A stretch of DNA of 64,000 bases from an uncultured Acidobacteriota bacterium (GTDB taxonomy: Bacteria; Acidobacteriota; UBA6911; RPQK01; JAPXNP01), in NCBI GenBank assembly GCA_963777605.1, contig CAVZRV010000010.1:128001-192000 (forward strand). Direction: 5' to 3'. Made by a program: the position numbers and the translations under genes. Below are positions 1,606-27,711 of this stretch, piece after piece (position 1 is the first letter of the stretch; each line of letters opens with the position of its first letter). The notes under the pieces were generated by a model. The model was not told the origin of the DNA. It searched no databases and saw only the letters and a list, made by a program, of their open reading frames with translations.

Positions 1606-2571
1606 CTAGCCCAGGTACCAGGTTTCGCTTACCGCCTCGGGAACGAAAAAGTCGGCAACCGGTCGAGCCAGCGCGTTGCAGGCCGATCGCAGCCGCTTCA
1701 TTCTCCGGCAGGCGACCGTGGCAAGGAATTCCTGTCTGGCGCCGGGGTCCAATCCGACGGCTTCGGCCCAGACCGCTCTTCCGGCGGCGACTCCGGAACA
1801 GCCCGATTCACAGGCCACTACCACCTGACGGAGGTAGGTTTCGTAGCCGACTCCGGCTGATAGCAGGACCCAGGGAACCGGCGAGGCTTCGGAAAGTTCT
1901 CTGCAGGCGTCGGCCCAGGCCGCCTCTTCCGGCTGCCAGGAGATGTCGGCCGGGAATTCGGCTTTCAGTACGTCCACTCCATCGATCGCCAGGTTGCGTG
2001 CCGTTTCGATAACGACCCGCCTACGCTCCTCCCCGGTCACTTTGCGCGAATCAGGATCGATGGAATAGGAGAGCGGCTCCAGCATCAGGAGCACATCGTG
2101 GCGTTTGCACTCCTCGGCAACCTGTGTCACCAGATTCACGATTCCGTCGGCGGCAGGTGATTCAGGATGATAGTACACCAGCAACTTGACGGCGTCGGCC
2201 CCAGCCCGGCGTGCCTTCTCAACGCTCCACCCTTCCAGGATTCTGCTCTCACGAGCAGAGGCCGGCCCGGTATAGCCAGTCGCTTCGACGGCTACGACCA
2301 GGCCGGTGCGCGAGGGCACTGAACCAGACCTGACGCACTGTGCCACGCCAACCTCGGGGTCGAGCAGAACTGCGCTCGCGCCCGGAGCCAGACGGGATAC
2401 CAATTCTTGTTTGAAAACGGACATTTCAACCGGCGTCACGGTTTCCGGACTCGTTGGCCGCAAAGCCTTCCGCAGATTGTTTCGATGGTCCAGAGCCAGC
2501 ACGGCCACCGCCTGACGGTCCGTAGAACAGCGCTGAAGCCCTCTCAGTTTTCCAATCGTCAGAGTTCTCAT
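1606..2571 (-). CDS. Tagatose-1,6-diphosphate aldolase-like class I aldolase (LacD/YihT family)
   Basis: LALDHR, AVLLDPE, DAVKLLVYY, DVLKAEFP, PWVLLSAGV, GVAAGRAVW motifs. Confidence 0.85.
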   Translation of the reverse strand: MRTLTIGKLRGLQRCSTDRQAVAVLALDHRNNLRKALRPTSPETVTPVEMSVFKQELVSRLAPGASAVLLDPEVGVAQCVRSGSVPSRTGLVVAVEATGYTGPASARESRILEGWSVEKARRAGADAVKLLVYYHPESPAADGIVNLVTQVAEECKRHDVLLMLEPLSYSIDPDSRKVTGEERRRVVIETARNLAIDGVDVLKAEFPADISWQPEEAAWADACRELSEASPVPWVLLSAGVGYETYLRQVVVACESGCSGVAAGRAVWAEAVGLDPGARQEFLATVACRRMKRLRSACNALARPVADFFVPEAVSETWYLG

Positions 2572-2724
2572 TCAGGTGCCTTCTTTCAAGCAGAATCCGC
2601 GACCCCGCGGATCCGGTTTCGTTTGAGGCCATGATATGGATCGGCGCAACCGAGTCAACTGCTGTACATCGCTCAAGGGAGAACCTATGATGGCCGACGG
2701 GAGACCAAGAAACGGAGTAACACC

Positions 2725-4170
2725 ATGAATCGAAGCATCTCGTGGGCCGCCGTAATCATATGCCTTCTACTTGGTTGCGCTTCCTGTGCGAGCCAGGATG
2801 AGTGGATCAGCCTCTTCGATGGCCGCACATTGGACGGCTGGCGAGTGGGCGAAAGCCCTGAATCCTTCCAGGTCGAGGACGGCGCCATAGTCTGTAACGG
2901 CCCCCGGGCCCATCTCTTCTACATGGGAGAAGACGGAAATGCCGCCTTCAAGAATTTTGAATTCGAGGCCGAGGTTCGCACGGATCCCGGTTCCAACTCG
3001 GGAATCTACATCCACACCAGCTATCAGGAATCCGGTTGGCCGACGACAGGATACGAAGCCCAGGTTCTGAACTCCAACCGCCCTGAAGAGAACCCGGATG
3101 ATGCCGAACACAAGATGACTGGAAGCCTATACGCAATCCGGAACATCTGGAAACCGGTCGTCCCGGATAACGAGTGGTTCAAGTATCGAATCCTGGTCCA
3201 GGGCAAGACGATCAGGATCTACATCAATGACCACCTGCTTGTCGATTACACCGAACCCGAGGAACCGTTCCGTCCTGCAGGAATGGAAGAAAGGCTCCTG
3301 TCCACGGGCACGTTTGCCTTACAGGCGCACGACCCGCGAAGTCGAGTTTCCTATCGAAACCTTCGGGTCCGTCCCCTGGCAGACGATCTCTCCACCCCGG
3401 GGAAACCACTCGACGACCCCGAACTCGGACGAACACTCATCGAGTACTCCGCCGCGAATATTCCCCTCGCCGACCTTCATGTTCATCTGAAGGGAGGCTT
3501 AACCGCCGAAAAAGCTCTCGAAAACGCTCGCAAATACGGATTTACTTACGGCTTTGCTGTCAACTGTGGCCTCGACATGACGATTCCCAGTGAGGCGGCG
3601 CTGAAGGATTTCCTGACCAACTATGAACGCATCCCGGAAACCTGGTTGGCCATGCAGGCTGAAGGCCGGGAATGGCTGCAAATCTTCGAACCTGTCTCCA
3701 TCGCACGGTTCGACTACGTGTTTACCGACGCCATGACCTGGACCAGCGATGAGGGCAAGCGGATGCGGCTCTGGATTCCCGACGAAGTGGAAGTCGGTGA
3801 ACCCCAGCATTTCATGGACATGCTGGTAGAACGGATTGAAGGTATTCTCAACAACGAACCGATTAATATCTATGTCAATCCGACCTACCTCCCCGAGGAG
3901 ATCTCCGCGAGGTACGACGAACTCTGGACCCCTGAGCGGATGGACCGGGTCATCAAGGCCCTGACCGCAAACGGAATCGCCCTGGAAATCAACGACGCCC
4001 GCAAGATTCCGAGTGCAACTTTCATCAAGCGTGCCAAAGCGGCCGGTGTGAAATTCACTTTCGGGACCAACAATGCGGGTAAGGACGATCTGGGCCATCT
4101 CGCCTACCCGCTCGAAATGGTGAAGGAGTGTGGCTTGCAGTCGGCCGACATCTGGCTTCCCAAGCCCTGA
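2725..4170 (+). CDS. Exported DUF1080 (3-keto-glycoside lyase/hydratase-like) domain fused to a PHP-like domain
   Basis: Signal peptide; WISLFDGRTLDGW, NSGIY, GYEAQV, GTFALQAHDP; C-terminal DLHVH and LEIN...GVKFTFG of the PHP fold. Confidence 0.8.
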   Translation: MNRSISWAAVIICLLLGCASCASQDEWISLFDGRTLDGWRVGESPESFQVEDGAIVCNGPRAHLFYMGEDGNAAFKNFEFEAEVRTDPGSNSGIYIHTSYQESGWPTTGYEAQVLNSNRPEENPDDAEHKMTGSLYAIRNIWKPVVPDNEWFKYRILVQGKTIRIYINDHLLVDYTEPEEPFRPAGMEERLLSTGTFALQAHDPRSRVSYRNLRVRPLADDLSTPGKPLDDPELGRTLIEYSAANIPLADLHVHLKGGLTAEKALENARKYGFTYGFAVNCGLDMTIPSEAALKDFLTNYERIPETWLAMQAEGREWLQIFEPVSIARFDYVFTDAMTWTSDEGKRMRLWIPDEVEVGEPQHFMDMLVERIEGILNNEPINIYVNPTYLPEEISARYDELWTPERMDRVIKALTANGIALEINDARKIPSATFIKRAKAAGVKFTFGTNNAGKDDLGHLAYPLEMVKECGLQSADIWLPKP

Positions 4171-4269
4171 TCGAACTTGTTGCGAGCCGGTCGCCGGCAG
4201 AAGAGTGCCCCCGACCGGTGACCCGCCTCACAGAAGGTTGTCCCCTGCCCGGTCGAAAATGTTCCGGAT

Positions 4270-4614
4270 ATGAACAGGAAATCGAGAGAGGGAGGTTTCA
4301 GCATCCTTTCGGTGCTGCTGGCGCTGCTCGTGATCGGACTTCTCTACGTCTGGCTTGCGGGCGGGATGCCGTCAACGGTGAATTCGGTGTCGCAGGCGCA
4401 GGTCGTCAAGAAGGCTTCCGTTGTCCTCTCCTGCCGGATGAATCTCCAGGCCGTGGACAAGGAGATTGTGACCTGGTGTGCGACCCACCCAGGCATGAAA
4501 CCCACGCTTGAGGACCTCAAGAAGTCGGGAGTCGTGATTCTCGGCTGCCCCGAAGGAGGCCAGTGGAGCATCCGGGATGGGCACGTCCGATGTTCAGTTC
4601 ACTCGACGCCGTAA
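4270..4614 (+). CDS. Type IV pilin/pseudopilin-like small protein
   Basis: Basic leader plus G|FSILSVLLALLVIGLL class III signal; C-terminal CPEGG...CSVH Cys pair. Confidence 0.6.
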   Translation: MNRKSREGGFSILSVLLALLVIGLLYVWLAGGMPSTVNSVSQAQVVKKASVVLSCRMNLQAVDKEIVTWCATHPGMKPTLEDLKKSGVVILGCPEGGQWSIRDGHVRCSVHSTP

Positions 4615-4620
4615 ACCGCT

Positions 4621-5364
4621 CTACTCAGGCTGGTCGATCAACTCGGCCTTGACGATGTAGTCCATCTCGGGAAACTGGAGGCGCAGGTACTCGTTTCCCC
4701 GGAGGCCGAGAAGGCGCGTCCGCGGCCCTTCTCCGATTGGGTAAAGCTCTCCATAGCTGGTATTGATCGCCTCCACGACGTCCATTCCGTCAACCACCTT
4801 CGCGACAGGAACAAACTCCCGGTCGAGGTCCTTGTTGTCTTGCAGGTTGATGAACAGCTGGCTGGTCCGGCTGTCCGGTCCCGACATGGCAAAGCTCAAT
4901 GTGCCTCGGAGATTCGACTGCTGGTTGCGAGGGTCGTCGTGAATCCACTGTTCCGACCAGATCCGGTTGATCTCAGGGTTCCCGTTGACTCCGAACTGGA
5001 CAATGAAGTCCTTGACAGCGCGGAAGAAGGCGTTGTCGTCATAGTAGCCGATTCGGACCAGGTTATAGATGCGGTCCGCGCCAATCGGCCCCCATGCACG
5101 GCGAACCTCGATCGTAAAGGCCCCCTTGGTCGTCTCAAATCGGGCCTGAAACGATTCAGGAGCCTCCTCACGGGCCAGCGTCGGGATGAGCAGGGCCGAA
5201 TTCCCAGTCCCGGGCCCTTCAGCCGGTGGAACGATCTCAACCGCAGGTGCTTCTGAAATCGGCCTGGAGGCCGGCTCCGGTGTACAGGCTGCCGCCCCCG
5301 CGAGGAACAGGAGGAGAAATAGCCAGCCCGGTTCGGCTTCTAACCAACGACGACGACTGTTCAT
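4621..5364 (-). CDS. Cyclophilin-type peptidyl-prolyl cis-trans isomerase, probable lipoprotein
   Basis: FETTKG, GYYDDNAFFR, FIVQFG, GTLSFA, SQLFINL, VVDGMDVV; AAAC lipobox-like; start taken as the ATG at 5364. Confidence 0.88.
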   Translation of the reverse strand: MNSRRRWLEAEPGWLFLLLFLAGAAACTPEPASRPISEAPAVEIVPPAEGPGTGNSALLIPTLAREEAPESFQARFETTKGAFTIEVRRAWGPIGADRIYNLVRIGYYDDNAFFRAVKDFIVQFGVNGNPEINRIWSEQWIHDDPRNQQSNLRGTLSFAMSGPDSRTSQLFINLQDNKDLDREFVPVAKVVDGMDVVEAINTSYGELYPIGEGPRTRLLGLRGNEYLRLQFPEMDYIVKAELIDQPE

Positions 5365-7768: not shown

Positions 7769-8188
7769 TCAGGAGCGCTTTTGGAAAGTGCCCATCACGC
7801 GCCGTGTGTGATGCTCAACCTTGGCCAGGTCAACAGCCTTCAAAGGAACATCCCAGCCTTCGGTGTTTCCCTCGATCTCAATTCCGGAGAGATAGTGCTG
7901 GCCGGCGACGTCTTCAAACCTCAGGGCGGTGTTCTTGGCAGGGTTGAGGGTTTCGGACTGCTCTGTCACGAAGACGGCCTCATGCGTGCCATCGGCACTG
8001 CGGATGACCCATTCACTTGCTGCACTGGAGAGTTCTTCGGCCTCATACTTGCCCGCCGGGAGGACCTTCTGGTCCACCTTGAACGAAAAGGGAATATTGG
8101 TCTGGACTAGCCTGTCTGTATCTCCAGCAAAGAGCGCGAAAACCGACGTTGCGAAGATCACTGCGACAATCAACAAGTTCTTTCTCAT
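7769..8188 (-). CDS. Small secreted hypothetical protein (acidobacterial IPFxF...LPAGxY type)
   Basis: Signal peptide MRKNLLIVAVIFATSVFALFA; NIPFSFKVDQKVLPAGKY; GAGGA RBS. Confidence 0.75.
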   Translation of the reverse strand: MRKNLLIVAVIFATSVFALFAGDTDRLVQTNIPFSFKVDQKVLPAGKYEAEELSSAASEWVIRSADGTHEAVFVTEQSETLNPAKNTALRFEDVAGQHYLSGIEIEGNTEGWDVPLKAVDLAKVEHHTRRVMGTFQKRS

Positions 8189-8250
8189 TTTAGGTTCCTC
8201 CTTAATTGGAAGTTCGTTGTATTTATTAGCCCGTTCACGTCTTCCAATCA

Positions 8251-8266
8251 AGCAAGGGACGTGCCA
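8251..8266 (-). promoter_or_regulatory. Sigma-54 (-24/-12) promoter
   Basis: Minus strand TGGCACGTCCCTTGCT is a perfect match to TGGCACG-N4-TTGCW, ~60 nt upstream of the ATG at 8188. Confidence 0.8.
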
Positions 8267-12277: not shown

Positions 12278-13552
12278 TTAAACGGTACTGGGGTCCACGA
12301 CCCGGCCCATGAAGAGCATCGCGCCGGTGGCCCGGTCATAGATTACGAAGAGGAACGGGCGATCGATTCGAATCGTTGGAGGCATCGAAGTGACCCCCAT
12401 CGTGATTCCGGTGGCGGCAGCCGCCTCGGTGCCCCGCTCATTCACATCGATATAAGCTCCTTGAAAAACCCTTTGTATAAAGAGATCGGCCTGGTCCGAG
12501 ATTCCCGAAAAATCGGCCCGTTCAGGATTGAACGCCAGCGCCATTCCCATTTGCTTCAGAGCCCCGGACAACTCCAGGTCACTCTTGATCCTGAATCGCG
12601 GCATGCTGAGTTCGATATACGTCGATTCCAACCTGCTGAGGCGCTCCCGAAACCAATCCGAGGATATCGTCCGGCTCATCTCCGGGAAGTCCTCCATGCG
12701 CGAGGGGAGAAAGACCGCCATCGCAATCCTCTCGCCACGATAAGGAAGGTCCACGACCGTCCCATCTTCTGACGATTCAACCCGGTAAGCTCCGGTCCGC
12801 CGCATGAAAGGCACCTGAACGGTGTCGCCGCCGAGCCTGAGAAAATCACCCGGACGGGTGGCCCTTTCGTCAAAGGGATCCTTCCAGGTGCCCAGGAAAT
12901 AGATGGCATTGGTCAAAACCAGGCGGGTGTCCCGATTCAGGCTACCTGGAGGCAACAGTGGGTCGATCTTTCCTCCTGTCCGTTCTGCTGTCCAACGGTT
13001 GATCTGGTTCCTCGCATCGTCGAACTCCGAGGCAAAATCGAGCGGGTTCAAATCGGCATCGAACTCGCGCTTCAGGAGAGAAACGAAGTCGACCTTCAAC
13101 TGGAGCCCCTCCTGGACCCAGAGGGCATTCGCAATCTCGAGAGCAATATCTCCTGACTCCGAGGCTTGTCCCAGGGAGTCGAACAGGTTGTGGACAGCGC
13201 CGGCGATCACTTCAGAATCCGCGGCCTGCTCCTTCTCCTCGCCAGGTGCCAGAACCGAGGTCATTTCCGCCCTGGTTTTCCCATCCGCTCCGGCAGCGGT
13301 CATTGCGAGCGCGGCGTACACGCTGAAGGGCGAGCTGACGCTATCTTTATCGGTAGTTCCGGTGCGCTGAAAGAGTTCGATTGCAAACCGGTTCACGGCG
13401 TCACCGATGTTCAAAGCTGGTGGTTTTCCAGCCGGGTCCTGGCCGGTTGTACCCGGTCCCGGTGTCAGGGCGGCGCCGACCTCCGGTCGCTGACACCCCA
13501 ACATAAGGATGCTTATCAGAATCAGGGAGAGTGGATTATATAATTCGATCAC
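12278..13552 (-). CDS. Serpin (serine protease inhibitor), probable lipoprotein
   Basis: SPFSV, INRWTAERTGGKI, LVLTNAIYFLGTW, VNERGTEAAAAT hinge, DRPFLFVI, FMGRVVDP; MLGC lipobox-like. Confidence 0.93.
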   Translation of the reverse strand: MIELYNPLSLILISILMLGCQRPEVGAALTPGPGTTGQDPAGKPPALNIGDAVNRFAIELFQRTGTTDKDSVSSPFSVYAALAMTAAGADGKTRAEMTSVLAPGEEKEQAADSEVIAGAVHNLFDSLGQASESGDIALEIANALWVQEGLQLKVDFVSLLKREFDADLNPLDFASEFDDARNQINRWTAERTGGKIDPLLPPGSLNRDTRLVLTNAIYFLGTWKDPFDERATRPGDFLRLGGDTVQVPFMRRTGAYRVESSEDGTVVDLPYRGERIAMAVFLPSRMEDFPEMSRTISSDWFRERLSRLESTYIELSMPRFRIKSDLELSGALKQMGMALAFNPERADFSGISDQADLFIQRVFQGAYIDVNERGTEAAAATGITMGVTSMPPTIRIDRPFLFVIYDRATGAMLFMGRVVDPSTV

Positions 13553-17418: not shown

Positions 17419-17434
17419 TGGCACCTTGTATGCA
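17419..17434 (+). promoter_or_regulatory. Sigma-54 (-24/-12) promoter of the multiheme operon
   Basis: TGGCACCTTGTATGCA: GG and GC at the canonical spacing, ~120 nt upstream of the first gene. Confidence 0.7.
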
Positions 17435-17554
17435 TAACACGGCAGCACTTTAGATTTTCGTCAATGAAATGACTGGGGACTACCTGTGGCGTTAGGTGGC
17501 TGTTGCCTTTCCTGTGGCAGTCTCCAAACGGACACAGTTGCTTATGAGGAGTTT

Positions 17555-18445
17555 GTGATAAGAAGCTCAGCCGGGCGGCAGTTCAACCTCTTTGGAGTCT
17601 GCCTTTCAATCATCATAGCCGGCTACGTGACAGGACTCCTGGCTGTCGCCTATCGAGGCTATGACTACTACTTGACCCCGCTCAACGATCGGGCTTTTCA
17701 CCAGGGGCACTCCGAACTGAAACCGTCCGGAAAAATCGGGCATCGGCTTGGAACGGTCGGCGGAATCCTGATGCTGCTGACTTTTGCCTACTCGATCCGA
17801 AAGCGTTCATCTCTCCTGCAGCGAATTGGCACCCAGAAGCAATGGCTCCAGGTCCACATCTGCTTCGGACTCGGAGGTCCAATCCTGGTGGTCTTTCACA
17901 CCACCGGGAAACTCGGCGGCCTGGCGGCAATCGGTTTCTACTCGACCCTTGCCATGGTCGTCTCCGGCATCTTCGGGCGCTACCTCTACTCCAAGATTCC
18001 ACGCACGCGCAAGGGAAACGAGATGTCCCTGATCCAGATCGAACAGGAGTTTGCCGACCTGGTAAGCCGACTGGGCGGAGATCACGGAGGGAACGAACTC
18101 CTCGATGCCGTCGAATCATACCTGTCACAGGTCAGGAAACGCTCCCTTGGCCTCGGACAGGCCCTGGCCGTGGCACTCTGGGACGATCTCAAGAGTCCGC
18201 TTCGGGTTATCCAGGCGTGGAACATCGCCGCTCACCAACACGCCACGTTTAGGATCCAGTTCAGGACAACCCGACTCATCCTGAAACAGAGACGATTGCT
18301 GAAGAAATTGACGGTGATCGAGGCAAGCCAGCGCCTTTTCTCCTACTGGCACATCTTCCACCGACCTTTTACGATCCTCGCATCGGTACTCATCAGCGTT
18401 CACGTCGCGGTGGCCACTTACTTCGGGTACGGAGTCGGCTTGTGA
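17555..18445 (+). CDS. Inner-membrane di-heme cytochrome b (ferric-reductase-like transmembrane domain)
   Basis: About 5-6 hydrophobic helices; two H-x13-H pairs (VHICFGLGGPILVVFH, FHRPFTILASVLISVH); GAGGAG RBS before the GTG at 17555. Confidence 0.75.
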   Translation: MIRSSAGRQFNLFGVCLSIIIAGYVTGLLAVAYRGYDYYLTPLNDRAFHQGHSELKPSGKIGHRLGTVGGILMLLTFAYSIRKRSSLLQRIGTQKQWLQVHICFGLGGPILVVFHTTGKLGGLAAIGFYSTLAMVVSGIFGRYLYSKIPRTRKGNEMSLIQIEQEFADLVSRLGGDHGGNELLDAVESYLSQVRKRSLGLGQALAVALWDDLKSPLRVIQAWNIAAHQHATFRIQFRTTRLILKQRRLLKKLTVIEASQRLFSYWHIFHRPFTILASVLISVHVAVATYFGYGVGL

Positions 18446-20310
18446 TCATTGCCCGGCTCTTTCCTGCCCTGTTGATTCTCTCAACCGGGCCTCTCGCCGC
18501 CCAAGGCCTCGAGTCTCTGGTTTCCCCCGGCACGTTGAGCCGGGCCCACGCAAACCTCTCTGGACTCGACAACTGCCAGCGCTGTCACACTCCCGGTGAA
18601 GGAGTCACCTCGAGCAAGTGCCTTTCCTGCCACACCGAGATTGCCGAGCGAATTCGTGAAGGGCGAGGTCTCCACCGAGAGGAACATTCCGACAACTGTC
18701 AAAGCTGCCATCCTGAACACCGGGGTGAAGAAGCCCAGATGACTCCATGGGATCCGACCAGCTTCGATCACGCCGAGACCGGCTATCGGCTGGAAGGCTT
18801 TCACTCCGAGGTGAAGGCATGCGATCAGTGCCACACGCCAGAACGATCACAGAAACGAGAAACGACCAAGTCCTTTCTGCTCCGATCGGACTCCTGTACG
18901 ACCTGTCACAACGACGCCCACAAAGGGGTGCTTGGACCGGGTTGCGAGCGCTGCCACAGCGTCAAACGGCACTTCAAGTCGGTCGACTTCGACCACTCAC
19001 GGGCCGCCTTCCCGCTCAGAGGCGCCCACGCTAAGGTGGCCTGCTCCCGCTGTCACGTGGACAGCCGCTGGAAAGGAATCGCCTTCTCGCAATGCCTCGA
19101 TTGCCACGCCAACCGACATCGTCCATCGCTGGGCAGCGACTGCACTCAATGCCACACGGTCAGCTCCTGGAAGATTGCGGATGCCTCAACAAGGTTTCAC
19201 CAGGCCGGCTCCGCCTTTCCCCTGCGAGGCGGACACGCAGAGGTGGCCTGCTCCAAGTGCCACCTCAACGGCCAGTTCAAAGGCATCGCCTTTCAGGAGT
19301 GCCGGAACTGTCACACCAGCAGCCCTCACCAGGGGCAGTTCAGTCAAGATTGCAAATCGTGCCATACCGAAGACAACTTCACGAAGACGACGTTTCGGCA
19401 CGAATCGGCTCGGTTTCGCCTCAACGGGAAGCACCTGGGAGTCGCATGCAGCAAGTGCCATCCTAGGGAGAAGGTCGAATTCGCCGAGAAGACGGTTGCG
19501 TTCACCCGCTATCGCCCACTTTCGACCGAATGCCGTGCCTGTCACGATGACATCCACCTTGGGCAGTTCAGCCAACCCTGCGCCAAATGCCATTCGACCG
19601 GAGGCTTCGGCTTGAGCCAGATCTCCTTCTCGCACAACACCGACTCCGACTTTGTTCTCAAGGGAAGTCACATCGGCCTCGTATGCGGGCGCTGCCACAA
19701 ATCGGAGAGGGGTACGTTTCCTGCCGGGTTTGGACAGGCGGTCCGGTTTCTCCCCATCTCTCCTACCTGTGAGACCTGTCACCCAGACCAGCATGGGGGG
19801 CAACTGGGCGATCAATGCGCATCCTGTCACACGGTTGAACACTTCAAACCGGCATCGGGGTTCAACCATCGAATGGCGCGCTTTCAACTCACCGGCAAGC
19901 ACCAGGATCTCCCCTGCGCCGACTGTCACCCGAGAGTAAAGCGTGTGCCGTCCTCGGGAGAAACCTTGATGCGGACCCTCTACCGGCCCTTGCGCAAAGA
20001 GTGCAGCAGCTGTCACAAGGATCCTCATCGCCGGGCGGACCAAGCCTCATGTGACGAGTGCCATACCTCGAAAACCTTCGAGGTTAGAAACTTCAACCAT
20101 TTTGAGACGTCGTTCGCGCTGATGGGACGACACGCCAGCCTGGCCTGCGAGCGCTGTCACACCCAGACGAACTGGAACGGCAAAGTGGTGCTTACCTTCG
20201 CCCACGTTCGCCGTGAATGCCAGGATTGCCACAAATCCCCCCATCGGTCTCGTTACGGCGAGTGTGGTCGCTGTCATGTCACGACAACCTGGGTGATCAG
20301 TGATTTTTAG
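18442..20310 (+). CDS. Exported 24-heme cytochrome c (8 tri-heme modules)
   Basis: Sec signal peptide; 24 CxxCH motifs counted; recurring FxH...FxLxGxH...CxxCH units; GTGA overlap with the upstream gene. Confidence 0.95.
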   Translation: MIIARLFPALLILSTGPLAAQGLESLVSPGTLSRAHANLSGLDNCQRCHTPGEGVTSSKCLSCHTEIAERIREGRGLHREEHSDNCQSCHPEHRGEEAQMTPWDPTSFDHAETGYRLEGFHSEVKACDQCHTPERSQKRETTKSFLLRSDSCTTCHNDAHKGVLGPGCERCHSVKRHFKSVDFDHSRAAFPLRGAHAKVACSRCHVDSRWKGIAFSQCLDCHANRHRPSLGSDCTQCHTVSSWKIADASTRFHQAGSAFPLRGGHAEVACSKCHLNGQFKGIAFQECRNCHTSSPHQGQFSQDCKSCHTEDNFTKTTFRHESARFRLNGKHLGVACSKCHPREKVEFAEKTVAFTRYRPLSTECRACHDDIHLGQFSQPCAKCHSTGGFGLSQISFSHNTDSDFVLKGSHIGLVCGRCHKSERGTFPAGFGQAVRFLPISPTCETCHPDQHGGQLGDQCASCHTVEHFKPASGFNHRMARFQLTGKHQDLPCADCHPRVKRVPSSGETLMRTLYRPLRKECSSCHKDPHRRADQASCDECHTSKTFEVRNFNHFETSFALMGRHASLACERCHTQTNWNGKVVLTFAHVRRECQDCHKSPHRSRYGECGRCHVTTTWVISDF

Positions 20311-20313
20311 AGC

Positions 20314-22032
20314 ATGCATGAGGAGAATCCATTGAACCGCAATTTGATTCGCTTTGCCGGACAGGCCCGGGTTCGCCTCTCGGGCGTGATTCTTGGACTT
20401 CTCGGGCTGCTGGCCTGCCCTCTTCTGGCCGCCGAAACCAGGCCCAAGTCGCCAGCTATCTCAGGAGTCGTGAAGGATCCCTCCGGATTCCTCATCCCCG
20501 GCTGCTCCGTCTCGCTAGTCACAACCGAGCTCCAACAGCTGAACCAGACGCTGACCAGCGACCTTGGACAATTCACCTTTGAAAACGTTCAGCCGGGTAG
20601 CTACGTTGTCGATGTCCAAGCAGCGGGATTCAAGGACCGGCGTGTCGAAAATGTCCTCCTGACCTCAGACCAGGCAGTCAAGCTCGAGATTGTCCTTGAA
20701 CTGGCGAGCCGGACCGACCAGGCGGAAGTGGTCGCCCAACGGGAAGAGGCGGGAGAGGAGACCAAGCTCAAGCTGATCGACCATCCCCTCGATCCCCCTG
20801 AATTCATGCGGCAGGAACTTCCTCGTCAGCCGTTACTGAAGCGGGGTCGCCTTTACTCCGACTGGTTCGGGATTCGGACCGGCGATCGATTTGTGAACCA
20901 ACTCAGCAACCGTGCCAAGATGGAGTTCGGAGAACCCGGCCTGGGCTGGAACGCCCGTTTCGATTTTCGCGATCGGGTCACCCTCGGGGGCAGCACATCC
21001 CACATCCTGAGCGTTTACGATGCCCGCCTGGTCTATGACAATGTTCGGCATCCGCTCTATGCATCCGTCGGCCAGATGAACCTTTACGATACGGCCGGCA
21101 TCGGGGAACTCCTGGGGGGCCTCTTCGGAGTGAGACCAACCACCCGGCTCCTGGTTGGGGGCTACGGGGGACTTAAACCCGACCTTTACCGAACCCAGGT
21201 AGACCCGGCATTCAGAAAGTACGGCCTCTTCGCTCGCTACGTCGGCCCCAAGGCCCAGAGTTTCTCGATCAGCTACAATCAGTTGCGATACTCGGGGAAC
21301 ACCGAACGGAGTTATCTCTATTTCAACGGACTGACCAACGTCGGTGACCGGGCGGTCCTCTACGGGAACGCCGAGTTCGAACTCGGGTCCCACATCCGGT
21401 CCTCGGACCGCCTTTCGCGCTTGTTTCTGAACGGTCGCTTCGACCTGAGCCGGCGGTTCGACCTGATCGCGAACTACAGCAGCGGAAAAGGCCTCGACTT
21501 TCACCGGTTTCTCCTGGAGCGGGCTCAGGATCCTTTGGGCAACCAGAACGAACTGGAGCGCTTCTATTACAACTCCCAGTACGGCATCCGCCTCCGCTAT
21601 CGCCTGTCCGACAACTGGCGTGTGTTCTTCGGTCAACGGATGAGCGAGCGGAAGGATATCTCGATCCAGAACCGGACCACTCAGCTCGGAGTCACGGCTT
21701 CGCGGATTCGCGATCTCGGACTATCTCTCTATGCCAACTACAACATCAACCGGGGCGATGCCTCGGAGTCCGATTCGTTCTACCTTTCGATCTCAAAGAC
21801 ACTCGGGAAACATTCTTGGAGCACGAGTTACTCGACATCGTTTAACGGCCTGCGATTCAACAGTGCGGCTGGCGTTCCCGAGGTGGTCCACCTGGCGTCG
21901 CGAAGCACGCTTTTCAACGAACTCTTCTTCGTTATCAACCGGACTCTTGCCCTTTCATTCCAGCACGAACACACATTTGGTCTGATCCAGGGGGAGGACC
22001 TCTTCTTCGTCCGTTTCATTTTGAGGATGTAG
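20314..22032 (+). CDS. Outer-membrane beta-barrel (porin) with an N-terminal carboxypeptidase-regulatory-like domain
   Basis: Signal peptide; ISGVVKDPSG...GQFTFENVQPGSYVVDVQAAGF; ~400-aa amphipathic Tyr/Phe/Gly-rich beta strands ending FFVRFILRM. Confidence 0.78.
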   Translation: MHEENPLNRNLIRFAGQARVRLSGVILGLLGLLACPLLAAETRPKSPAISGVVKDPSGFLIPGCSVSLVTTELQQLNQTLTSDLGQFTFENVQPGSYVVDVQAAGFKDRRVENVLLTSDQAVKLEIVLELASRTDQAEVVAQREEAGEETKLKLIDHPLDPPEFMRQELPRQPLLKRGRLYSDWFGIRTGDRFVNQLSNRAKMEFGEPGLGWNARFDFRDRVTLGGSTSHILSVYDARLVYDNVRHPLYASVGQMNLYDTAGIGELLGGLFGVRPTTRLLVGGYGGLKPDLYRTQVDPAFRKYGLFARYVGPKAQSFSISYNQLRYSGNTERSYLYFNGLTNVGDRAVLYGNAEFELGSHIRSSDRLSRLFLNGRFDLSRRFDLIANYSSGKGLDFHRFLLERAQDPLGNQNELERFYYNSQYGIRLRYRLSDNWRVFFGQRMSERKDISIQNRTTQLGVTASRIRDLGLSLYANYNINRGDASESDSFYLSISKTLGKHSWSTSYSTSFNGLRFNSAAGVPEVVHLASRSTLFNELFFVINRTLALSFQHEHTFGLIQGEDLFFVRFILRM

Positions 22033-22040
22033 GTGTCTCG

Positions 22041-23495
22041 ATGAACTACCTCGTTTGGTTTGGAATATTCCTGGTACTCGCCATTCTCGCCACCGTTCCG
22101 GTGCACTTTCACCTTTCCTCCATGAGTAAGAAGGAGTCCGGATCGGACCGCGGGCCCGGAAGCGGAGTTAAACTTCGGGATTGCCCGGGCTGCGGCAGCC
22201 CGACGCCGGTCGATGCGGCGTTTTGCGACAAGTGCGGCGTTCCGATGATGCTCTGGTCGTTGAAGCAAGCTCGGGAGGTCCAGGGAGAGCAGCAGAACCA
22301 GGGAAAAGCGGTACCCATCATCGATCAAGATGTCTGCATCGGATGCAGTGCCTGTGTCAACGCCTGCGATGAAGCCGTGCTGGAAATCGTGGCCGGTAAG
22401 TCCGCCGTCACCAATGTGAGTGCCTGCACCAGTGCCGGGACCTGTGTCGAAGTCTGCCCGACCGGCGCTTGCCAGCTTGGGGGCGGCGGTGCCGCCCGTC
22501 GAGTCGAGGTGCCGCAGATCGACGGGGACTTCCAGACCAACCAGGCCGGTGTCTATGCCGTCGGCGAACTCGGTGGCCTGGGACTAATCAAAAGCGCAAT
22601 CGCGGAAGGCCAAATGGTAATCGAGCGGATCGCCCCCAACCATGAACCGCGAGAGGGGGTGCTCGACCTGGTGATCGTCGGATCGGGACCTGCGGGACTG
22701 TCGGCGGCCCTGGCGGCCAAAACCAAGGGCCTGTCGGCCATCATCCTTGAGCAGGGGAACCTCGCCAACACCATCCGGAAGTACCCCAATCGGAAGATCG
22801 TCATGGCGGAACCGATCAAGATCCCCATGTACGGCTCGCTCTGGATCTCGGACGCACCCAAGGAAACTCTCCTCGGAGTCTGGCAGACCATCATCGACTC
22901 ATCCGGGATCGCCGTGAACGAAAACGAGAAAGTCCTTTCCATCCAGCGCCAGGACGATGGAACCTTCGTCACTGGAACGCCCAAAGGCACATACCACAGC
23001 CAGAAGGTCATTCTCGCCATCGGGAAGCGCGGAACTCCCAATGAACTCCCGGCGCCCGGAGCCGGGTTGCCTAAGGTCCTTTACACCCTGACCGACACGG
23101 CCCAATACCGTGACAGCAGGATCCTTGTCGTCGGCGGGGGAGACTCGGCGGCCGAGGCAGCGATTACGCTGGCTCGCCAGCCCGGCAACGAGGTGGTCAT
23201 GTCCTACCGGCGCGCTGAGTTCACTCGCCTGAAGCCCAAGAACCTGGAGGGAATCGAGTCAAGCACTGCATCCGGAGAAGTTCGCCTGCTGCTCGGAAGC
23301 CAGGTTACAGAGGTGACCCCGTCCACCGTCTCAGTTCTGCTTTCGTCCGGAGAAGTTCAGACCATTGAGAACGATTACGTGTTCGCTTTTCTGGGCGGAA
23401 CCTCGCCGAAGAGCTTCCTGGCAGAGATCGGTGTCGAGATGGTGACCAAGGAAGTCGCAATGGAGCTTCAGAAAGGGCATCATGAAGCGGTTTAG
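22041..23495 (+). CDS. Membrane-anchored zinc-ribbon / ferredoxin / TrxR-fold FAD-NADP(H) oxidoreductase
   Basis: N-terminal TM helix; CPGC..CDKC; CIGCSACVNAC and CTSAGTCVEVCP; GSGPAG (FAD); GGGDSA plus YRR (NADP); no redox CxxC. Confidence 0.88.
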   Translation: MNYLVWFGIFLVLAILATVPVHFHLSSMSKKESGSDRGPGSGVKLRDCPGCGSPTPVDAAFCDKCGVPMMLWSLKQAREVQGEQQNQGKAVPIIDQDVCIGCSACVNACDEAVLEIVAGKSAVTNVSACTSAGTCVEVCPTGACQLGGGGAARRVEVPQIDGDFQTNQAGVYAVGELGGLGLIKSAIAEGQMVIERIAPNHEPREGVLDLVIVGSGPAGLSAALAAKTKGLSAIILEQGNLANTIRKYPNRKIVMAEPIKIPMYGSLWISDAPKETLLGVWQTIIDSSGIAVNENEKVLSIQRQDDGTFVTGTPKGTYHSQKVILAIGKRGTPNELPAPGAGLPKVLYTLTDTAQYRDSRILVVGGGDSAAEAAITLARQPGNEVVMSYRRAEFTRLKPKNLEGIESSTASGEVRLLLGSQVTEVTPSTVSVLLSSGEVQTIENDYVFAFLGGTSPKSFLAEIGVEMVTKEVAMELQKGHHEAV

Positions 23496-26400
23496 ACCTT
23501 CCCAGTGGGCCGTCCTTCTGGTACTTCCGGTGCTTCTCTGCTCGGTGGTTCCAGCCCAGGAGGGTTCGCGGGGCCGGGTTTTCGAGCACGACAAAACGAA
23601 CTTTCCGCTCACCGGCCGGCACCGGACAATAGCTTGCGCCGAGTGCCACCTCGGCGGGCAACTTGAAGGCACTCCGGTCGCGTGCGAAGCCTGCCACTGG
23701 GACCGCCGCCAGGACGACCGTTACAACCTCCAGCTTGGAATCAACTGCGCCGAGTGTCACACCACGGAAGGCTGGAAGGCGGTTTCAGCAGACGCCTGGA
23801 ACCACGAGGCACGCACCGGGTTCCGCCTCGAGGGCTATCACCGGTCAATCGAGTGCACCGACTGTCACACAGACGGATTCGAGGGACTCTCCCCTGATTG
23901 CATTTCCTGTCATCAAGGCGACTTTGAGCGGGCAGAGAGCCCCAATCACGTCGCCCTGGCCTTCCCGAATGACTGCGTGCTCTGTCACACCAGCCAGACC
24001 AGTTGGGGCGGCGCAGTTTTCAATCACGCGAATTTCCCCTTGCGCGGGCAGCACCAGACGGTGGCCTGCGTGACTTGTCACAAAGACGGCGTCTTTGAGG
24101 GCTTGGCCTCGGAGTGCATTGCCTGTCACCGTCCCGATTTCGAGTCCACAACCGACCCGAACCATGTCACCGCTGGCTTCCCCACCGATTGCGTCAATTG
24201 CCACGGAGATTCGGCAACCAGCTGGGACAACGCCGACTTCGATCACTCCAGCTTTCCCCTCCGCGGCAAGCACGAGACCGCATTGTGCAGTTCCTGCCAC
24301 GCCGATGGTGTCTTCGCCGGCCTTGCCTCGGACTGCATCTCGTGTCACCGATCGGAATTCGAATCAACAACCGATCCGAACCATGTCGCCGCCGGATTCT
24401 CCAACGATTGCGCCTCCTGCCATGGCGGCCAGGCAACCGCCTGGGACGGCGCAACCTTCGAGCATGACAACTGGCCACTGCGCGGCCAGCACCAGGCCAC
24501 CGCCTGCGCCACCTGCCACAAGGACGGGGTGTTTGCAGGCCTGGCCTCGGAGTGTATCTCTTGTCACCGTCCCGAGTTTGAAGCGACGACCGATCCCAAC
24601 CACGTCACCGCGGGCTTTCCCACGGATTGCGTCACCTGCCACGGAGATTCGGCAACCAGTTGGGACAATGCCGACTTTAATCACGACACATTCCCTCTGC
24701 GCGGCAAGCATGAGACCGCATTGTGCAGTTCCTGCCACAAGGATGGTGTCTTCGCCGGGCTGGCCTCGGACTGCATCTCGTGTCACCGATCGGAATTCGA
24801 ATCAACAACCGATCCGAACCATGTGGCGGCCGGATTCTCCAACGACTGCGTCTCCTGTCATGGCGACCAGGCAACCGCCTGGGACGGCGCAACCTTCGAG
24901 CATGACAACTGGCCACTGCGGGGCCAGCACCAGACCACGGCGGCCTGCGCCACCTGCCACAAGAACGGCGTCTTTGCGGGTCTCGCCTCCGATTGTGTCT
25001 CCTGCCACCGGTCCGAGTTCGATTCCACGACGGACCCGAACCACGTCACTGCGGGATTCCCCACGGATTGCGTGACCTGCCACGGGACTCCGCCACCCGG
25101 TGGGACAAGGCCACCTTCGATCACGACTCCTGGCCTTTGAAAGGACAGCACCAGACGGTGGCCTGCGCCACCTGTCACAAGAACGGCGTCTTTGCGGGTC
25201 TCGCCTCCGATTGTGTCTCCTGCCACCGGTCCGAGTTCGATTCCGCGACGGACCCGAACCAGTCAGTTGCTGGATTCCCCACGGATTGCGTGACCTGCCA
25301 TGGAGACTCCGCCACCACCTGGGACAAGGCCACCTTCGACCACGACTCCTGGCCTTTGAAAGGACAGCACCAGACGGTGGCCTGCGCCACCTGTCACAAG
25401 AACGGCGTCTTTGCGGGTCTCGCCTCCGATTGTGTCTCCTGCCACCGGTCCGAGTTCGATTCCGCGACGGACCCGAACCACGTCGTTGCTGGATTCCCCA
25501 CGGATTGCGTGACCTGCCACGGAGACTCCGCCACCACCTGGGACAATGCCACCTTCGACCACGACTCCTGGCCTTTGAAAGGACAGCACCAGACGGTGGC
25601 CTGCGCCACCTGTCACAAGAACGGCGTCTTTGCGGGTCTCGCCTCCGATTGTGTCTCCTGCCACCGGTCCGATTTCGATTCCGCGACGGACCCGAACCAC
25701 GTCACTGCGGGATTCCCTACGGATTGCGTGACCTGCCATGGTGACTCCGCCACCCGGTGGGACGGGGCCACCTTCGATCATGACTCCTGGCCTTTGAAGG
25801 GACAGCACCAGACGGTGGCCTGCGCCACCTGTCACAAGGATGGAGTCTTCGCCGGACTGGCCTCGGAGTGCGTTTCCTGCCACCGATCCGATTTCGATTC
25901 TGCGACGGACCCGAACCACGTCACTGCTGGATTCCCCACGGATTGCGTGACCTGCCATGGTGATTCCGCCACCCGCTGGGACAGGGCCACCTTTGATCAT
26001 GACTCCTGGCCTTTGAAGGGACAGCACCAGACGGTGGCCTGCGCCACCTGTCACAAGAACGGCGTCTTTGCGGGACTCGCCTCCGACTGTGTCTCCTGCC
26101 ACCGATCCGAGTTCGATTCCGCGACGGACCCCAACCACGTCAGTGCGGGATTCCCCACGGATTGCGTGACCTGCCATGGTGATTCGGCAACCCGGTGGGA
26201 CGGGGCCACCTTTGATCATGACTCCTGGCCTTTGAAGGGACAGCATCAGACGGTGGCCTGCGCCACCTGTCACAAGGATGGAGTCTTCGCCGGACTGGCA
26301 TCGGAGTGCGTTTCCTGCCACCGATCCGAGTTCGATTCTGCGACGGACCCGAACCACGTCATGCGGGATTTCCTACGGATTGCGTGACCTGCCATGGTGA

Positions 26401-26848
26401 TTCGGCAACCCGGTGGGACGGGGCCACCTTTGACCATTCGGTTTGGCCCCTGCAGGGCGCACACCGGACCCTCAGTTGCCAGACTTGTCACAGCGCTGGA
26501 TACAACCTGCCTCGAGACTGCTACGGCTGTCATGCCGCCGATTACAACTCGACACAAAGTCCCAATCATTCGGCCTCGGGATTCCCGACAACGTGTGACT
26601 CCTGCCACTTCCCCGAACATGTCTACTGGAACCAGGCCGTTTTTCAGCATGACTTCCCGATCACTTCTGGGGCCCACAGGAATGTTGAGTGCCAGGAATG
26701 TCACCTCACCGCCAACTTCCTCGAATTCAGCTGCATCGACTGCCATGAGCACGCAAAAAATGAAACCGATCGACACCACCGAGAGGTCGGCGGCTACGTT
26801 TACAACAGCCAGGCGTGCTATTCCTGCCACCCCAATGGGCGCGAGTAA
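23482..26848 (+). CDS. Giant exported multiheme cytochrome c, 45 CxxCH motifs, ~1122 aa after repairing two single-base deletions (~25086, ~26361)
   Basis: Three overlapping ORFs carry 21+17+7 CxxCH motifs; neighbouring repeats show the missing bases (cacgg[a]gactcc and gtca[c]tgcggga); signal peptide ...VVPA|Q. Confidence 0.9.
24019..26428 (+). repeat. Eleven tandem 219-bp (73-aa) coding repeats, each a tri-heme module
   Basis: Unit consensus FDHDSWPLKGQHQTVACATCHKNGVFAGLASDCVSCHRSEFDSATDPNHVTAGFPTDCVTCHGDSATRWDGAT; shadow ORFs recur at 219- and 438-bp offsets. Confidence 0.95.
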
Positions 26849-26859
26849 AGGAAACAACT

Positions 26860-27711
26860 ATGAGAAATACAGCTCTGATTTTGGTTGCGTTACTTGTCCT
26901 AACCACCTGGACTGCTTGCAACTCCCAGGCCGATCTGGTGACTGCAGAAACAGGCGCAACAGGAATCCAGGTGGTTGCGGCTCACACCGCGGACACTACG
27001 CAGGCGCCACAGCCCGCATCTACTTCAATGCCGCCTGAAACGGAAGATCTTCCCAAGAGCGAGGGCCAGGATCAGTTGATCCGTGGAACGGTCACCGAGG
27101 TGATCGAAGCGAGCCAGTACGTCTACGTCTGCGTAAATTCCGGAAGCGAATCTCGATGGGTCGCCACCAACTCGCTCGACGTAAAATCTGGAGACTCCGT
27201 GGAGTTCGAGCAGGGCCTCCTGATGAGAAACTTCAAGAGCCCCTCAATGGGCAGGGTCTTTCCGGCGATCCTCTTTGTTCAGGGTCTGCAGGTCACCAGT
27301 CGCCCGACTGTCCAGGTCACAGCAGTGAAAGGACTCCCCTCCGGGCACCCCTCCGTCCCCAAGAGCGCGCGTACCGCGGCCCGGGAGGTAGCCCGTCCCA
27401 ACCCGGGTTCGATTCCCCGGCTGAAGGATACGCTGACAATTGAGGCAATCCAGAAAGATCAGGAGGCTCTCAACGGAAAGGCGGTGTCGGTGGTCGGAAT
27501 GGTCACGAAAGTCAGCGCCAACATCATGGATCGTAACTGGATTCACCTGGTTGATGAAGACGGGCGCGAGCTGGTGGTCACCTCCAGCGCTACCGCTGTT
27601 CCCGGCTCCATCCAGGTCGCCCGGGGAACTCTCGTTGTCGGCAAGGCTTTTGAAACCGGGTACTACGTTCCACTTCTCCTCGAGAATTCAACGTTGGATT
27701 CCGCTTCCTGA
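26860..27711 (+). CDS. NrfJ-like / tandem OB-fold lipoprotein with an LPSGHP motif
   Basis: WTAC lipobox-like; GTVTEVIEASQYVYV...LMRNFKSPSMGRVFPAILFV; GLPSGHP linker; GKAVSVVGMVTKVSANIMDRNWIHL second domain. Confidence 0.65.
   Translation: MRNTALILVALLVLTTWTACNSQADLVTAETGATGIQVVAAHTADTTQAPQPASTSMPPETEDLPKSEGQDQLIRGTVTEVIEASQYVYVCVNSGSESRWVATNSLDVKSGDSVEFEQGLLMRNFKSPSMGRVFPAILFVQGLQVTSRPTVQVTAVKGLPSGHPSVPKSARTAAREVARPNPGSIPRLKDTLTIEAIQKDQEALNGKAVSVVGMVTKVSANIMDRNWIHLVDEDGRELVVTSSATAVPGSIQVARGTLVVGKAFETGYYVPLLLENSTLDSAS

Follow-up and report, generated by a model that had tools for sequence, protein, structure and literature searches.

A PCC3-Type Multiheme Cytochrome Cluster in an Acidobacterium with a Probable Split NADPH Oxidase-Like Electron Exporter

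We describe here a multiheme cytochrome cluster at positions 17419–27711 of a 64-kb stretch of contig CAVZRV010000010.1, from the genome of an uncultured soil Acidobacteriota bacterium (this whole stretch is referred to as the window in what follows). Seven open frames in our open reading frame (ORF) list, all on the + strand and lying behind a sigma-54-like motif, encode an inner-membrane protein (IMP), a 24-heme cytochrome, an outer-membrane β-barrel, a membrane-anchored iron–sulfur (Fe–S) flavoprotein, a very long repeat-built cytochrome that is spread over three frames, and a lipoprotein-like protein (Table 1). As assigned by motifs and gene content, this cluster is a member of the PCC3 type in a new phylum, with a conserved component, the flavoprotein, that the published PCC3 model lacks. 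We consider it probable that the cluster as a whole builds a trans-envelope heme conduit of the PCC3 type, with an electron exporter at the inner membrane that resembles a split NADPH oxidase (NOX).

Motifs, Topology and Distribution of the Inner-Membrane Protein

In the description of He et al. 2017 (PMC5566968), a PCC3 cluster encodes a porin together with two cytochromes, one extracellular and one periplasmic (medians of 34 and 21 hemes, respectively), and an IMP. The IMP is defined as a protein of ~300 aa with five transmembrane (TM) helices, of which helix 4 carries SGXXG and helices 3 and 5 each carry WX3HX13H, motifs that are shared between the IMPs of PCC3 and PCC4. A survey of the Gallionellaceae (PMC9900912) names four components, with 21, 24 or 27 hemes in the periplasmic cytochrome, and in both sources the clusters are genome-based predictions.

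The IMP of the window has the motif set of this definition. Five TM helices are seen both in its AlphaFold2 (AF2) model, with a predicted local distance difference test (pLDDT) score of 86, and in its hydropathy, and the motifs W120-x3-H124-x13-H138, S-G-I-F-G and W288-x3-H292-x13-H306 lie on helices 3 (His124/His138), 4, and 5 (His292/His306), respectively, which bears out the likeness to PCC3-type clusters drawn in an earlier reading of this DNA (the original prediction). Both W-x3-H-x13-H motifs and SGxxG are invariant in 28 aligned IMP sequences, as are the histidines H101, H115, H266, H269 and H283 (in the numbering of the sequence P0001, which is the residue number of the window IMP minus 23). 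The two histidine pairs, with 13 residues between partners, thus appear placed to bind two b hemes. The segment between helices 4 and 5, which is helical, contains 21 K+R in its 131 residues and should therefore be cytoplasmic; this in turn would put one histidine pair near each face of the membrane, His124/His292 on the cytoplasmic and His138/His306 on the periplasmic side.

The relatives of this protein are all annotated as "hypothetical" (140 matches), and a profile search at E ≤ 0.001 collects 4513 representative clusters. No family matches the IMP above threshold, Foldseek returns no match of its model in the PDB at E ≤ 0.001, and PDB sequences searched with a profile include no relevant match. 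The IMP is encoded in 11 of 41 related genomes, the window's own included, and in 37 of 301 sampled Acidobacteriota genomes at E ≤ 1e-20, such that its distribution across the phylum is patchy; these are the only two tallies in which an unpublished genome (G018) is counted.

The Fe–S Flavoprotein and Its Genomic Association with the IMP

The oxidoreductase encoded in the cluster combines an N-terminal TM helix, a Zn ribbon (C48, C51, C62 and C65), an 8-Cys ferredoxin domain (C99–C144), and a flavin adenine dinucleotide (FAD) and NAD(P) domain similar to those of thioredoxin reductase (TrxR) and YpdA. This layout is reflected in the Pfam matches (Pyr_redox_3, E 1.7e-44, residues 211–467; Fer4_10, E 7.7e-9; DZR, E 3.4e-6), of which Pyr_redox_3 corresponds to the flavoprotein fold with two dinucleotide-binding domains, while the scores for YpdA (TIGR04018, 167 bits vs 339.9) and TrxR (TIGR01292, 71 bits vs 343) do not reach the respective equivalog cut-offs. 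As there is no cysteine past residue 144, the redox-active CxxC of thioredoxin reductase is absent, and the Cys-free flavoprotein domain cannot be a disulfide reductase. From its domains, the protein instead looks like a fused ferredoxin:NAD(P) reductase. A SYRR...R motif is invariant in the relatives of the oxidoreductase, and we take it to resemble the 2′-phosphate site of thioredoxin reductase; a preference for NADPH based on this resemblance is only a lead.

The cysteine ligands differ between branches of this family. The Zn-ribbon insert (residues 43–66) is present only in the window's close clade; the His of a C-x-G-H-G-x-C motif is kept in at least 90% of the aligned homologues and is missing from this clade, which has an extra Cys144 instead (residues 129–144); and many Ignavibacteria oxidoreductases have Ser in place of the second Cys of the first motif. 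Based on these Cys/His changes, the ligation of the Fe–S clusters varies across the family.

Two related genomes (G014 and G010) show the identical six-gene order, and in two others (G034 and G023) the oxidoreductase gene directly follows that of the IMP, with multiheme cytochrome genes adjoining. A scan of species genomes confirmed at least 582 IMP loci across many phyla, and the co-conservation counts given here refer to the best 80 of these, ranked by match to one IMP subfamily and including related genomes that are mutually non-independent. The 80 loci are all non-proteobacterial and come from Acidobacteriota, Ignavibacteria/Bacteroidota, Zixibacteria, Krumholzibacteria, Calditrichia, Latescibacterota, Gemmatimonadota and others. 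The oxidoreductase is found in 69 of the 80, on the strand of the IMP in 69/69 cases, and the 11 loci without it all end early at a contig end; where at least 8 kb is available on both sides, it is present in 39/39 loci. A 24-heme-like cytochrome accompanies the IMP in 78/80 loci and a repeat cytochrome in 75/80, with the large cytochromes of related loci reaching 45 and 52 hemes.

A search among longer proteins further returned three natural fusions of 718–785 aa, in which a TM helix, Fer4 and Pyr_redox precede the IMP in this order. For one of them, P0241, the match to the window oxidoreductase has E 4e-71, and residues 494–758 match the IMP profile (99.5%, E 3e-22) and keep both WX3HX13H motifs. 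The order of TM helix, ferredoxin and FAD/NAD domains, followed by the IMP, fits the IMP topology proposed above. One fusion cluster has 8 members and another is found on 37 contigs, which indicates that the fusions are not artefacts. We find the fusion in 55 genome loci, three of them in complete isolate genomes of Planctomycetota (Saltatorellus ferox Poly30, Rohdeia mirabilis Pla163 and Engelhardtia mirabilis Pla133), and an ORF with at least 8 CxxCH lies within 8 kb of the fusion in 31 of the 32 loci that are at least 17 kb long. Typically, a 23–26-heme cytochrome is encoded directly downstream, with a second cytochrome ~1.6 kb further, as illustrated by the loci L129, L137 and L153 of complete Planctomycetota genomes, in which the fused gene (~715–790 aa) is followed by cytochromes with 23–26 and up to 25 CxxCH. 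Taken with the counts of 69/80 and 39/39, these fusions back the earlier pairing of the Fe–S flavoprotein with the di-heme membrane protein.

Long open frames around the IMP in the genomes G064 and G172 were also considered as flavoprotein fusions, and rejected on inspection. In the G064 locus (L100, ~2357–4870, − strand), IMP and 24-heme-like cytochrome matches share one frame, which may be an IMP–cytochrome fusion or a missing stop.

Multiheme Cytochromes and the β-Barrel

The first cytochrome of the cluster has a Sec signal peptide and 24 CxxCH motifs, arranged in 8 triheme units (~26 aa per heme), and thus lies within the range of 21–27 hemes given for periplasmic PCC3 cytochromes. It matches Pfam Cytochrome_C7 at E 1.6e-24 (the matches to this family on the two cytochromes range from E 1e-24 to 1e-25), and a sequence search of the PDB returns no relative for it. 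The second, very long cytochrome is built from 15 triheme units (~25 aa per heme), with each 219-nt copy of a tandem repeat encoding a 73-aa unit with a CxxCH spacing of 16/25/32; a search with its second piece against PDB sequences gave only a weak flavocytochrome c match. The three frames over which it is split contain 21+17+7 = 45 CxxCH, with no double counting across the frame changes, and both of the predicted heme-motif counts, 24 and 45, are exact. What does not hold in the assembly is the description of the 45-heme cytochrome as one open frame, as its three reading frames are separated by two 1-nt deletions, and that of the conduit as complete is for this reason unsupported here.

We located these deletions by alignment against the other copies of the 219-nt repeat. 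At the first (~25085), a base is missing after ...CACGG, where other copies read CACGGAGAC or CATGGTGAC; at the second (~26362), the copy reads GTCA-TGCGGG, and other copies GTCACTGCGGG. Programmed frameshifting was considered and rejected, as no slippery heptamer is seen by eye at either site. The one public DNA run found to contain related sequence (X1, share of words 0.08) yields 7 short contigs that reach neither 25085 nor 26362.

The protein encoded between the first cytochrome and the oxidoreductase consists of a signal peptide, a CarboxypepD_reg sandwich (residues 49–129) and ~24 strands (residues 176–571). Its AF2 model (pLDDT 81) is an outer-membrane barrel, for which Foldseek returns FimD, Occ porins and BtuB at E ~1e-8, and VIA returns Fiu (Z 21.4, 346 residues aligned). 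The barrel assignment, on which the predicted conduit had been made to depend, is therefore upheld. A signal-peptide ORF of ~530–640 aa is found within the cluster in 8/8 loci inspected, two of which (L066 and L040) are less clear due to high-GC ORF calls. Two positional counterparts of the barrel were compared with it by profile, and one of these is a remote homologue of the window barrel (96%, E 4e-9).

Proposed Electron Transfer Pathway

Taking these components together, we propose the following sequence of steps. The membrane-anchored flavoprotein would oxidize NAD(P)H on its FAD, and pass single electrons via two Fe–S clusters to the cytoplasmic-side heme b of the IMP (His124/His292), from which they would cross the membrane to the periplasmic-side heme (His138/His306). 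This heme would in turn reduce the 24-heme periplasmic cytochrome, from which the electrons would reach the barrel and the other, very long cytochrome. As no protons would be pumped along this route, the cluster would not be a coupling site; it would serve as an electron vent, or would reduce extracellular acceptors.

In the original prediction, the sequence was held not to reveal the direction of flow. Outward flow is, in our view, the most likely direction on the basis of standard potentials and of an inside-negative membrane potential, since it would be downhill from NAD(P)H and aided by the membrane potential. The opposite direction, in which electrons from Fe(II), cathodes or partner cells would pass via the IMP, Fe–S clusters and FAD to NAD(P)H, is one that we regard as very unlikely. 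PCC3 was first found in Fe(II) oxidizers and is drawn with inward flow by He et al. (PMC5566968), and all of the cofactors are reversible in principle, but, judged by standard potentials, NAD(P)+/NAD(P)H (~−320 mV) would lie far below the Fe(II)/Fe(III) couples at neutral pH, an inward electron would work against the inside-negative membrane potential, and Pfam and NCBIfam point to no energy-coupling subunit in the cluster.

Points against the Proposed Conduit and Alternative Explanations

A number of observations weigh against the conduit proposed above, and we present them here alongside the explanations that they would favor. At the inner membrane, the match of the IMP to Pfam Ferric_reduct (PF01794) is sub-threshold (20.8 bits vs a cut-off of 28, E 4.3e-4) and covers residues 88–146 only. 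A wide VIA search of the IMP model is dominated by generic long-helix proteins, and the sole di-heme b protein in the resulting list, the CybB cytochrome b561 (5oc0, Z 7.4), is not outstanding. To these can be added the way in which the 80 loci behind the co-conservation counts were selected, and the fact that the public runs found to contain related sequence comprise the one DNA run mentioned above, with no RNA run listed.

Known conduits are quinone-fed, for example by CymA, CbcL or ImcH. The published PCC3 model is of the same kind, in that He et al. (PMC5566968) liken the PCC3 IMP to a ferric-reductase domain, yet propose a quinone-active cytochrome b for this same motif set. Following this model, the IMP of the window would be a quinol/quinone-active cytochrome b connecting the heme wires to the quinone pool, and the flavoprotein an accessory, e.g. 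for heme poising, or for serving another acceptor. We consider this unlikely, as the presence of the flavoprotein in 39/39 full loci and its covalent fusion to the IMP are hard to explain by an accessory role, and the cytoplasmic 131-residue helical insert of the IMP suits the docking of a cytoplasmic partner.

At the outer membrane, neither cytochrome has a canonical lipobox, and surface exposure is thus unsupported. With tblastn, only one of the 80 related loci shows the barrel family of the window, and L035 adds a weak match at 24%; the second of the two profiled positional counterparts (L041) has a profile score of 5% to the window barrel and is unrelated to it; and no profile match to the window barrel family is seen for the Planctomycetota counterpart, an ORF of 585 aa that lies between the two cytochrome genes of L137. 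Given these values, we do not call the L041 and Planctomycetota middle genes porins. It is conceivable that both long cytochromes are periplasmic, where they would store electrons or reduce soluble or periplasmic substrates, with the barrel being a solute channel or an anchor, since neither cytochrome has a lipobox, since the barrel resembles plug-less TonB-dependent transporter and usher barrels and not a known cytochrome sheath, and since He et al. note cytochrome and IMP sets that have no porin (PMC5566968). Nevertheless, a barrel-sized signal-peptide ORF recurs inside the cluster in all of the eight loci inspected (with the reservation made above for two of them), and, judging from MtrAB, a barrel of 22–24 strands would have room for a heme chain; taking both sides into account, we find a purely periplasmic role quite improbable.

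The state of the long cytochrome gene, which is frameshifted both in the window and in G010, is the point on which an alternative has most in its favor. If both 1-nt deletions are real, the locus would be decaying, with the 45-heme cytochrome being a pseudogene or a truncated 21-heme protein, and only a 552-aa, 21-heme N-terminal product with a signal peptide would be made. With one more base at each of the two sites, the gene would instead be intact and encode 1122 aa with 45 hemes. Both sites lie outside homopolymer runs, and the 35 other window genes that were scanned appear intact by Pfam (27 match a family with no visible truncation and 8 match none), from which it follows that the assembly is not generally indel-ridden. 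The G010 orthologue is likewise split into two frames, with 26 + 13 CxxCH (L017, 6200–9152, − strand), as is the repeat cytochrome in L054 (14428–17842, + strand; 26 + 20 CxxCH), the second piece of which has no signal peptide; breaks in this gene thus recur across assemblies. Against this, both breaks of the window fall inside the 219-nt tandem array, a setting prone to consensus errors; beyond each break, the new frame remains open, with all 17 and all 7 CxxCH kept and the 16/25/32 spacing regular; and the orthologue in G014 is intact (914 aa, 36 hemes). Weighing these points, we treat a decaying locus as a serious, if somewhat doubtful, possibility.

Comparison with Known Systems

The cluster in the window shares with PCC3 a porin (here, a porin-like barrel), a 21–27-heme periplasmic cytochrome, a second, repeat-built many-heme cytochrome (here, 45 CxxCH in 73-aa repeats, split over three frames), and a ~300-aa, five-helix IMP with the defining motifs. 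It differs in that the published type has four components and a quinone feed, whereas the cluster studied here adds a conserved membrane-anchored Fe–S flavoprotein; in its host, which is from the Acidobacteriota, as compared with the Proteobacteria of the published clusters; and in its barrel, with ~24 strands as compared with up to 42 predicted strands in PCC3 porins. Neither "FAD" nor "ferredoxin" appears in the main text of He et al. (PMC5566968), although such a neighbor may be named in its supplements, where the genes of the clusters are listed. As far as the text of our sources extends, including that of Arbour et al. 2020, we found no published description of a flavoprotein partner of the PCC3 IMP.

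As to the inner-membrane module, both the NOX/ferric reductase family and the split MsrQ–Fre system have two bis-His b hemes on two helices, stacked across the membrane, with His residues 13 apart, and a cytoplasmic NAD(P)H flavoprotein, and they occur in fused and split forms, as does the IMP–flavoprotein family described here. Several differences are also apparent: the NOX domain has six helices and the window IMP five, with only the sub-threshold Ferric_reduct match already mentioned; the NOX dehydrogenase is of the FNR-like type (FAD_binding_8/NAD_binding_6), whereas that of the window is TrxR/YpdA-like and carries a ferredoxin domain; and the acceptors of NOX and MsrQ are O2, Fe(III) chelates and MsrP, as compared to the multiheme cytochrome proposed here. 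We suggest that the cluster works like a split NADPH oxidase while standing outside that family by Pfam score, helix number and dehydrogenase type.

MtrCAB and the Geobacter Pcc/Ext systems similarly encode a barrel together with periplasmic and outer multihemes. Their cytochromes have 8–12 hemes in MtrCAB/Pcc, fed by a quinol dehydrogenase, as opposed to 24 and 45 in the window, and the window cytochromes score far outside the decaheme families (DmsE/MtrA, TIGR03508, 28–29 bits vs 192.2; OmcA/MtrC, TIGR03507, 43 vs 209.3). In Hmc and Tmc of sulfate reducers, a periplasmic c3-type multiheme is connected through a membrane cytochrome b to a cytoplasmic Fe–S protein, and quinone is not obligatory, as we propose here. 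These complexes have an HdrD-like cytoplasmic subunit and no porin, whereas the window has an NAD(P)H flavoprotein, and the HmcA model gives 65–71 bits on the window cytochromes, vs a cut-off of 400. Finally, the c7-type polymers of Geobacter such as GSU1996 are also chains of triheme units, with the window proteins being far longer; the NCBIfam model nanowire_3heme (TIGR04257) gives 23–29 bits on these, vs a cut-off of 40.

Locus Organization, Promoter and Flanking Genes

The coordinates of the cluster are summarized in Table 1.

Table 1. Features of the Cytochrome Cluster, in Window Coordinates
Feature	Position	Strand	Remarks
Sigma-54-type −24/−12 motif TGGCAC-N5-ATGCA	17419..17434	+	52 nt 5′ of the first possible start
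Inner-membrane protein (IMP), PCC3-type	17486..18445	+	319 aa from GTG 17486, or 296 aa from 17555
Multiheme cytochrome c, 622 aa, 24 CxxCH	18442..20310	+	Motif count, Pfam Cytochrome_C7
Outer-membrane β-barrel, 572 aa	20314..22032	+	Pfam, AF2, Foldseek, VIA
Membrane-anchored oxidoreductase, 484 aa	22041..23495	+	Pfam, NCBIfam, Cys positions, alignment
Large multiheme cytochrome, piece 1, signal peptide + 21 CxxCH	23482..25140	+	Frame lost at ~25085, stop at 25138
Large multiheme cytochrome, piece 2, −1 frame, 17 CxxCH	24993..26387	+	Meaningful from ~25086 to ~26361
Large multiheme cytochrome, piece 3, third frame, 7 CxxCH	26306..26848	+	Meaningful from ~26363
219-nt tandem repeat, 9.7 copies, 84% matches	24310..26437	+	Both frameshifts inside
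Lipoprotein-like protein, unknown family	26860..27711	+	283 aa from ATG 26860; GTG 26815 also possible

Of the junctions between the genes, the first and fourth are overlaps of 4 and 14 nt, respectively, and the second, third and fifth are gaps of 3, 8 and 11 nt (the last if the final gene starts at ATG 26860). The co-orientation and tight packing given in the original prediction are confirmed by the ORF coordinates, just as its placement of the DNA in a probable acidobacterium agrees with the relatives, which carry the name Acidobacteriota. By Pfam, the flanks are unrelated to the cluster, with a DUF5107/TPR gene upstream and a sulfatase downstream. Genes for cytochrome c maturation are found in the genome.

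The proposed sigma-54-type promoter stands in part. The motif is present, with the pattern TGGCACN5WTGCW occurring twice in the window vs 0.13 expected (2/100 shuffles reach 2), and the genome has one sigma-54 gene (rpoN), but it lacks conservation in relatives: no such motif is found upstream of the L020 orthologue or in 76 further related loci (0/76), and L017 has only a loose GGCAT-type match. We regard the motif at 17419 as a plausible candidate for a sigma-54 promoter. The second exact motif in the window (TGGCACGTCCCTTGCT, 8251–8266, − strand) abuts the first possible start of a 160-aa ORF (7769–8251, − strand) that matches no Pfam family.

The last gene of the cluster is kept in the two closest relatives, G014 and G010, after the cluster in each case (38–50% identity by tblastn). 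Its product matches no Pfam and no NCBIfam family (0 in each) and has no PDB relative, and no NrfJ model turned up, leaving its earlier "NrfJ-like" label unsupported; its Atlas features include GW-domain and OB-fold clusters at 0.95, which we take as a lead only. Elsewhere in the window, we note a full-length bacterial serpin (12278–13552, − strand; positions 2–370 of the 370 of Pfam Serpin, E 6e-106) and the selenocysteine synthase SelA (48371–49789, + strand, E 1.6e-128), the latter of which suggests that the organism probably makes selenoproteins.

Conclusions

Beyond this one locus, we tentatively put forward a broader reading, which we hold to be about as open to doubt as to acceptance, with the balance slightly towards doubt. 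In this reading, the TrxR-like Fe–S flavoprotein and the five-helix di-heme protein would form a single ancient module, which occurs in split form in Acidobacteriota, Bacteroidota/Ignavibacteria, Zixibacteria and others, and as a fusion in Planctomycetota. The module would represent a second lineage of transmembrane NAD(P)H electron exporters, separate from NOX, and would drive a quinone-independent, membrane-potential-assisted route along which electrons from cytoplasmic NAD(P)H would enter heme wires with as many as ~50 hemes and leave through a barrel. To our knowledge, every characterized trans-envelope electron conduit is fed from the quinone pool, and a conduit wired straight to NAD(P)H would follow a different bioenergetic logic, namely redox balancing without proton pumping. 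If this is true, PCC3 clusters that have so far been taken for Fe(II)-oxidation equipment would serve, in these phyla at least, as outward electron vents of common soil and water heterotrophs, and PCC3 genes in metagenomes would read as outward reduction and not as iron oxidation. The fused forms in the complete genomes of cultured Planctomycetota make this hypothesis directly testable. Considering the large size of the IMP family (4513 clusters, and 37/301 Acidobacteriota genomes), the effect on the cycling of iron, manganese and humics in soil could be wide.

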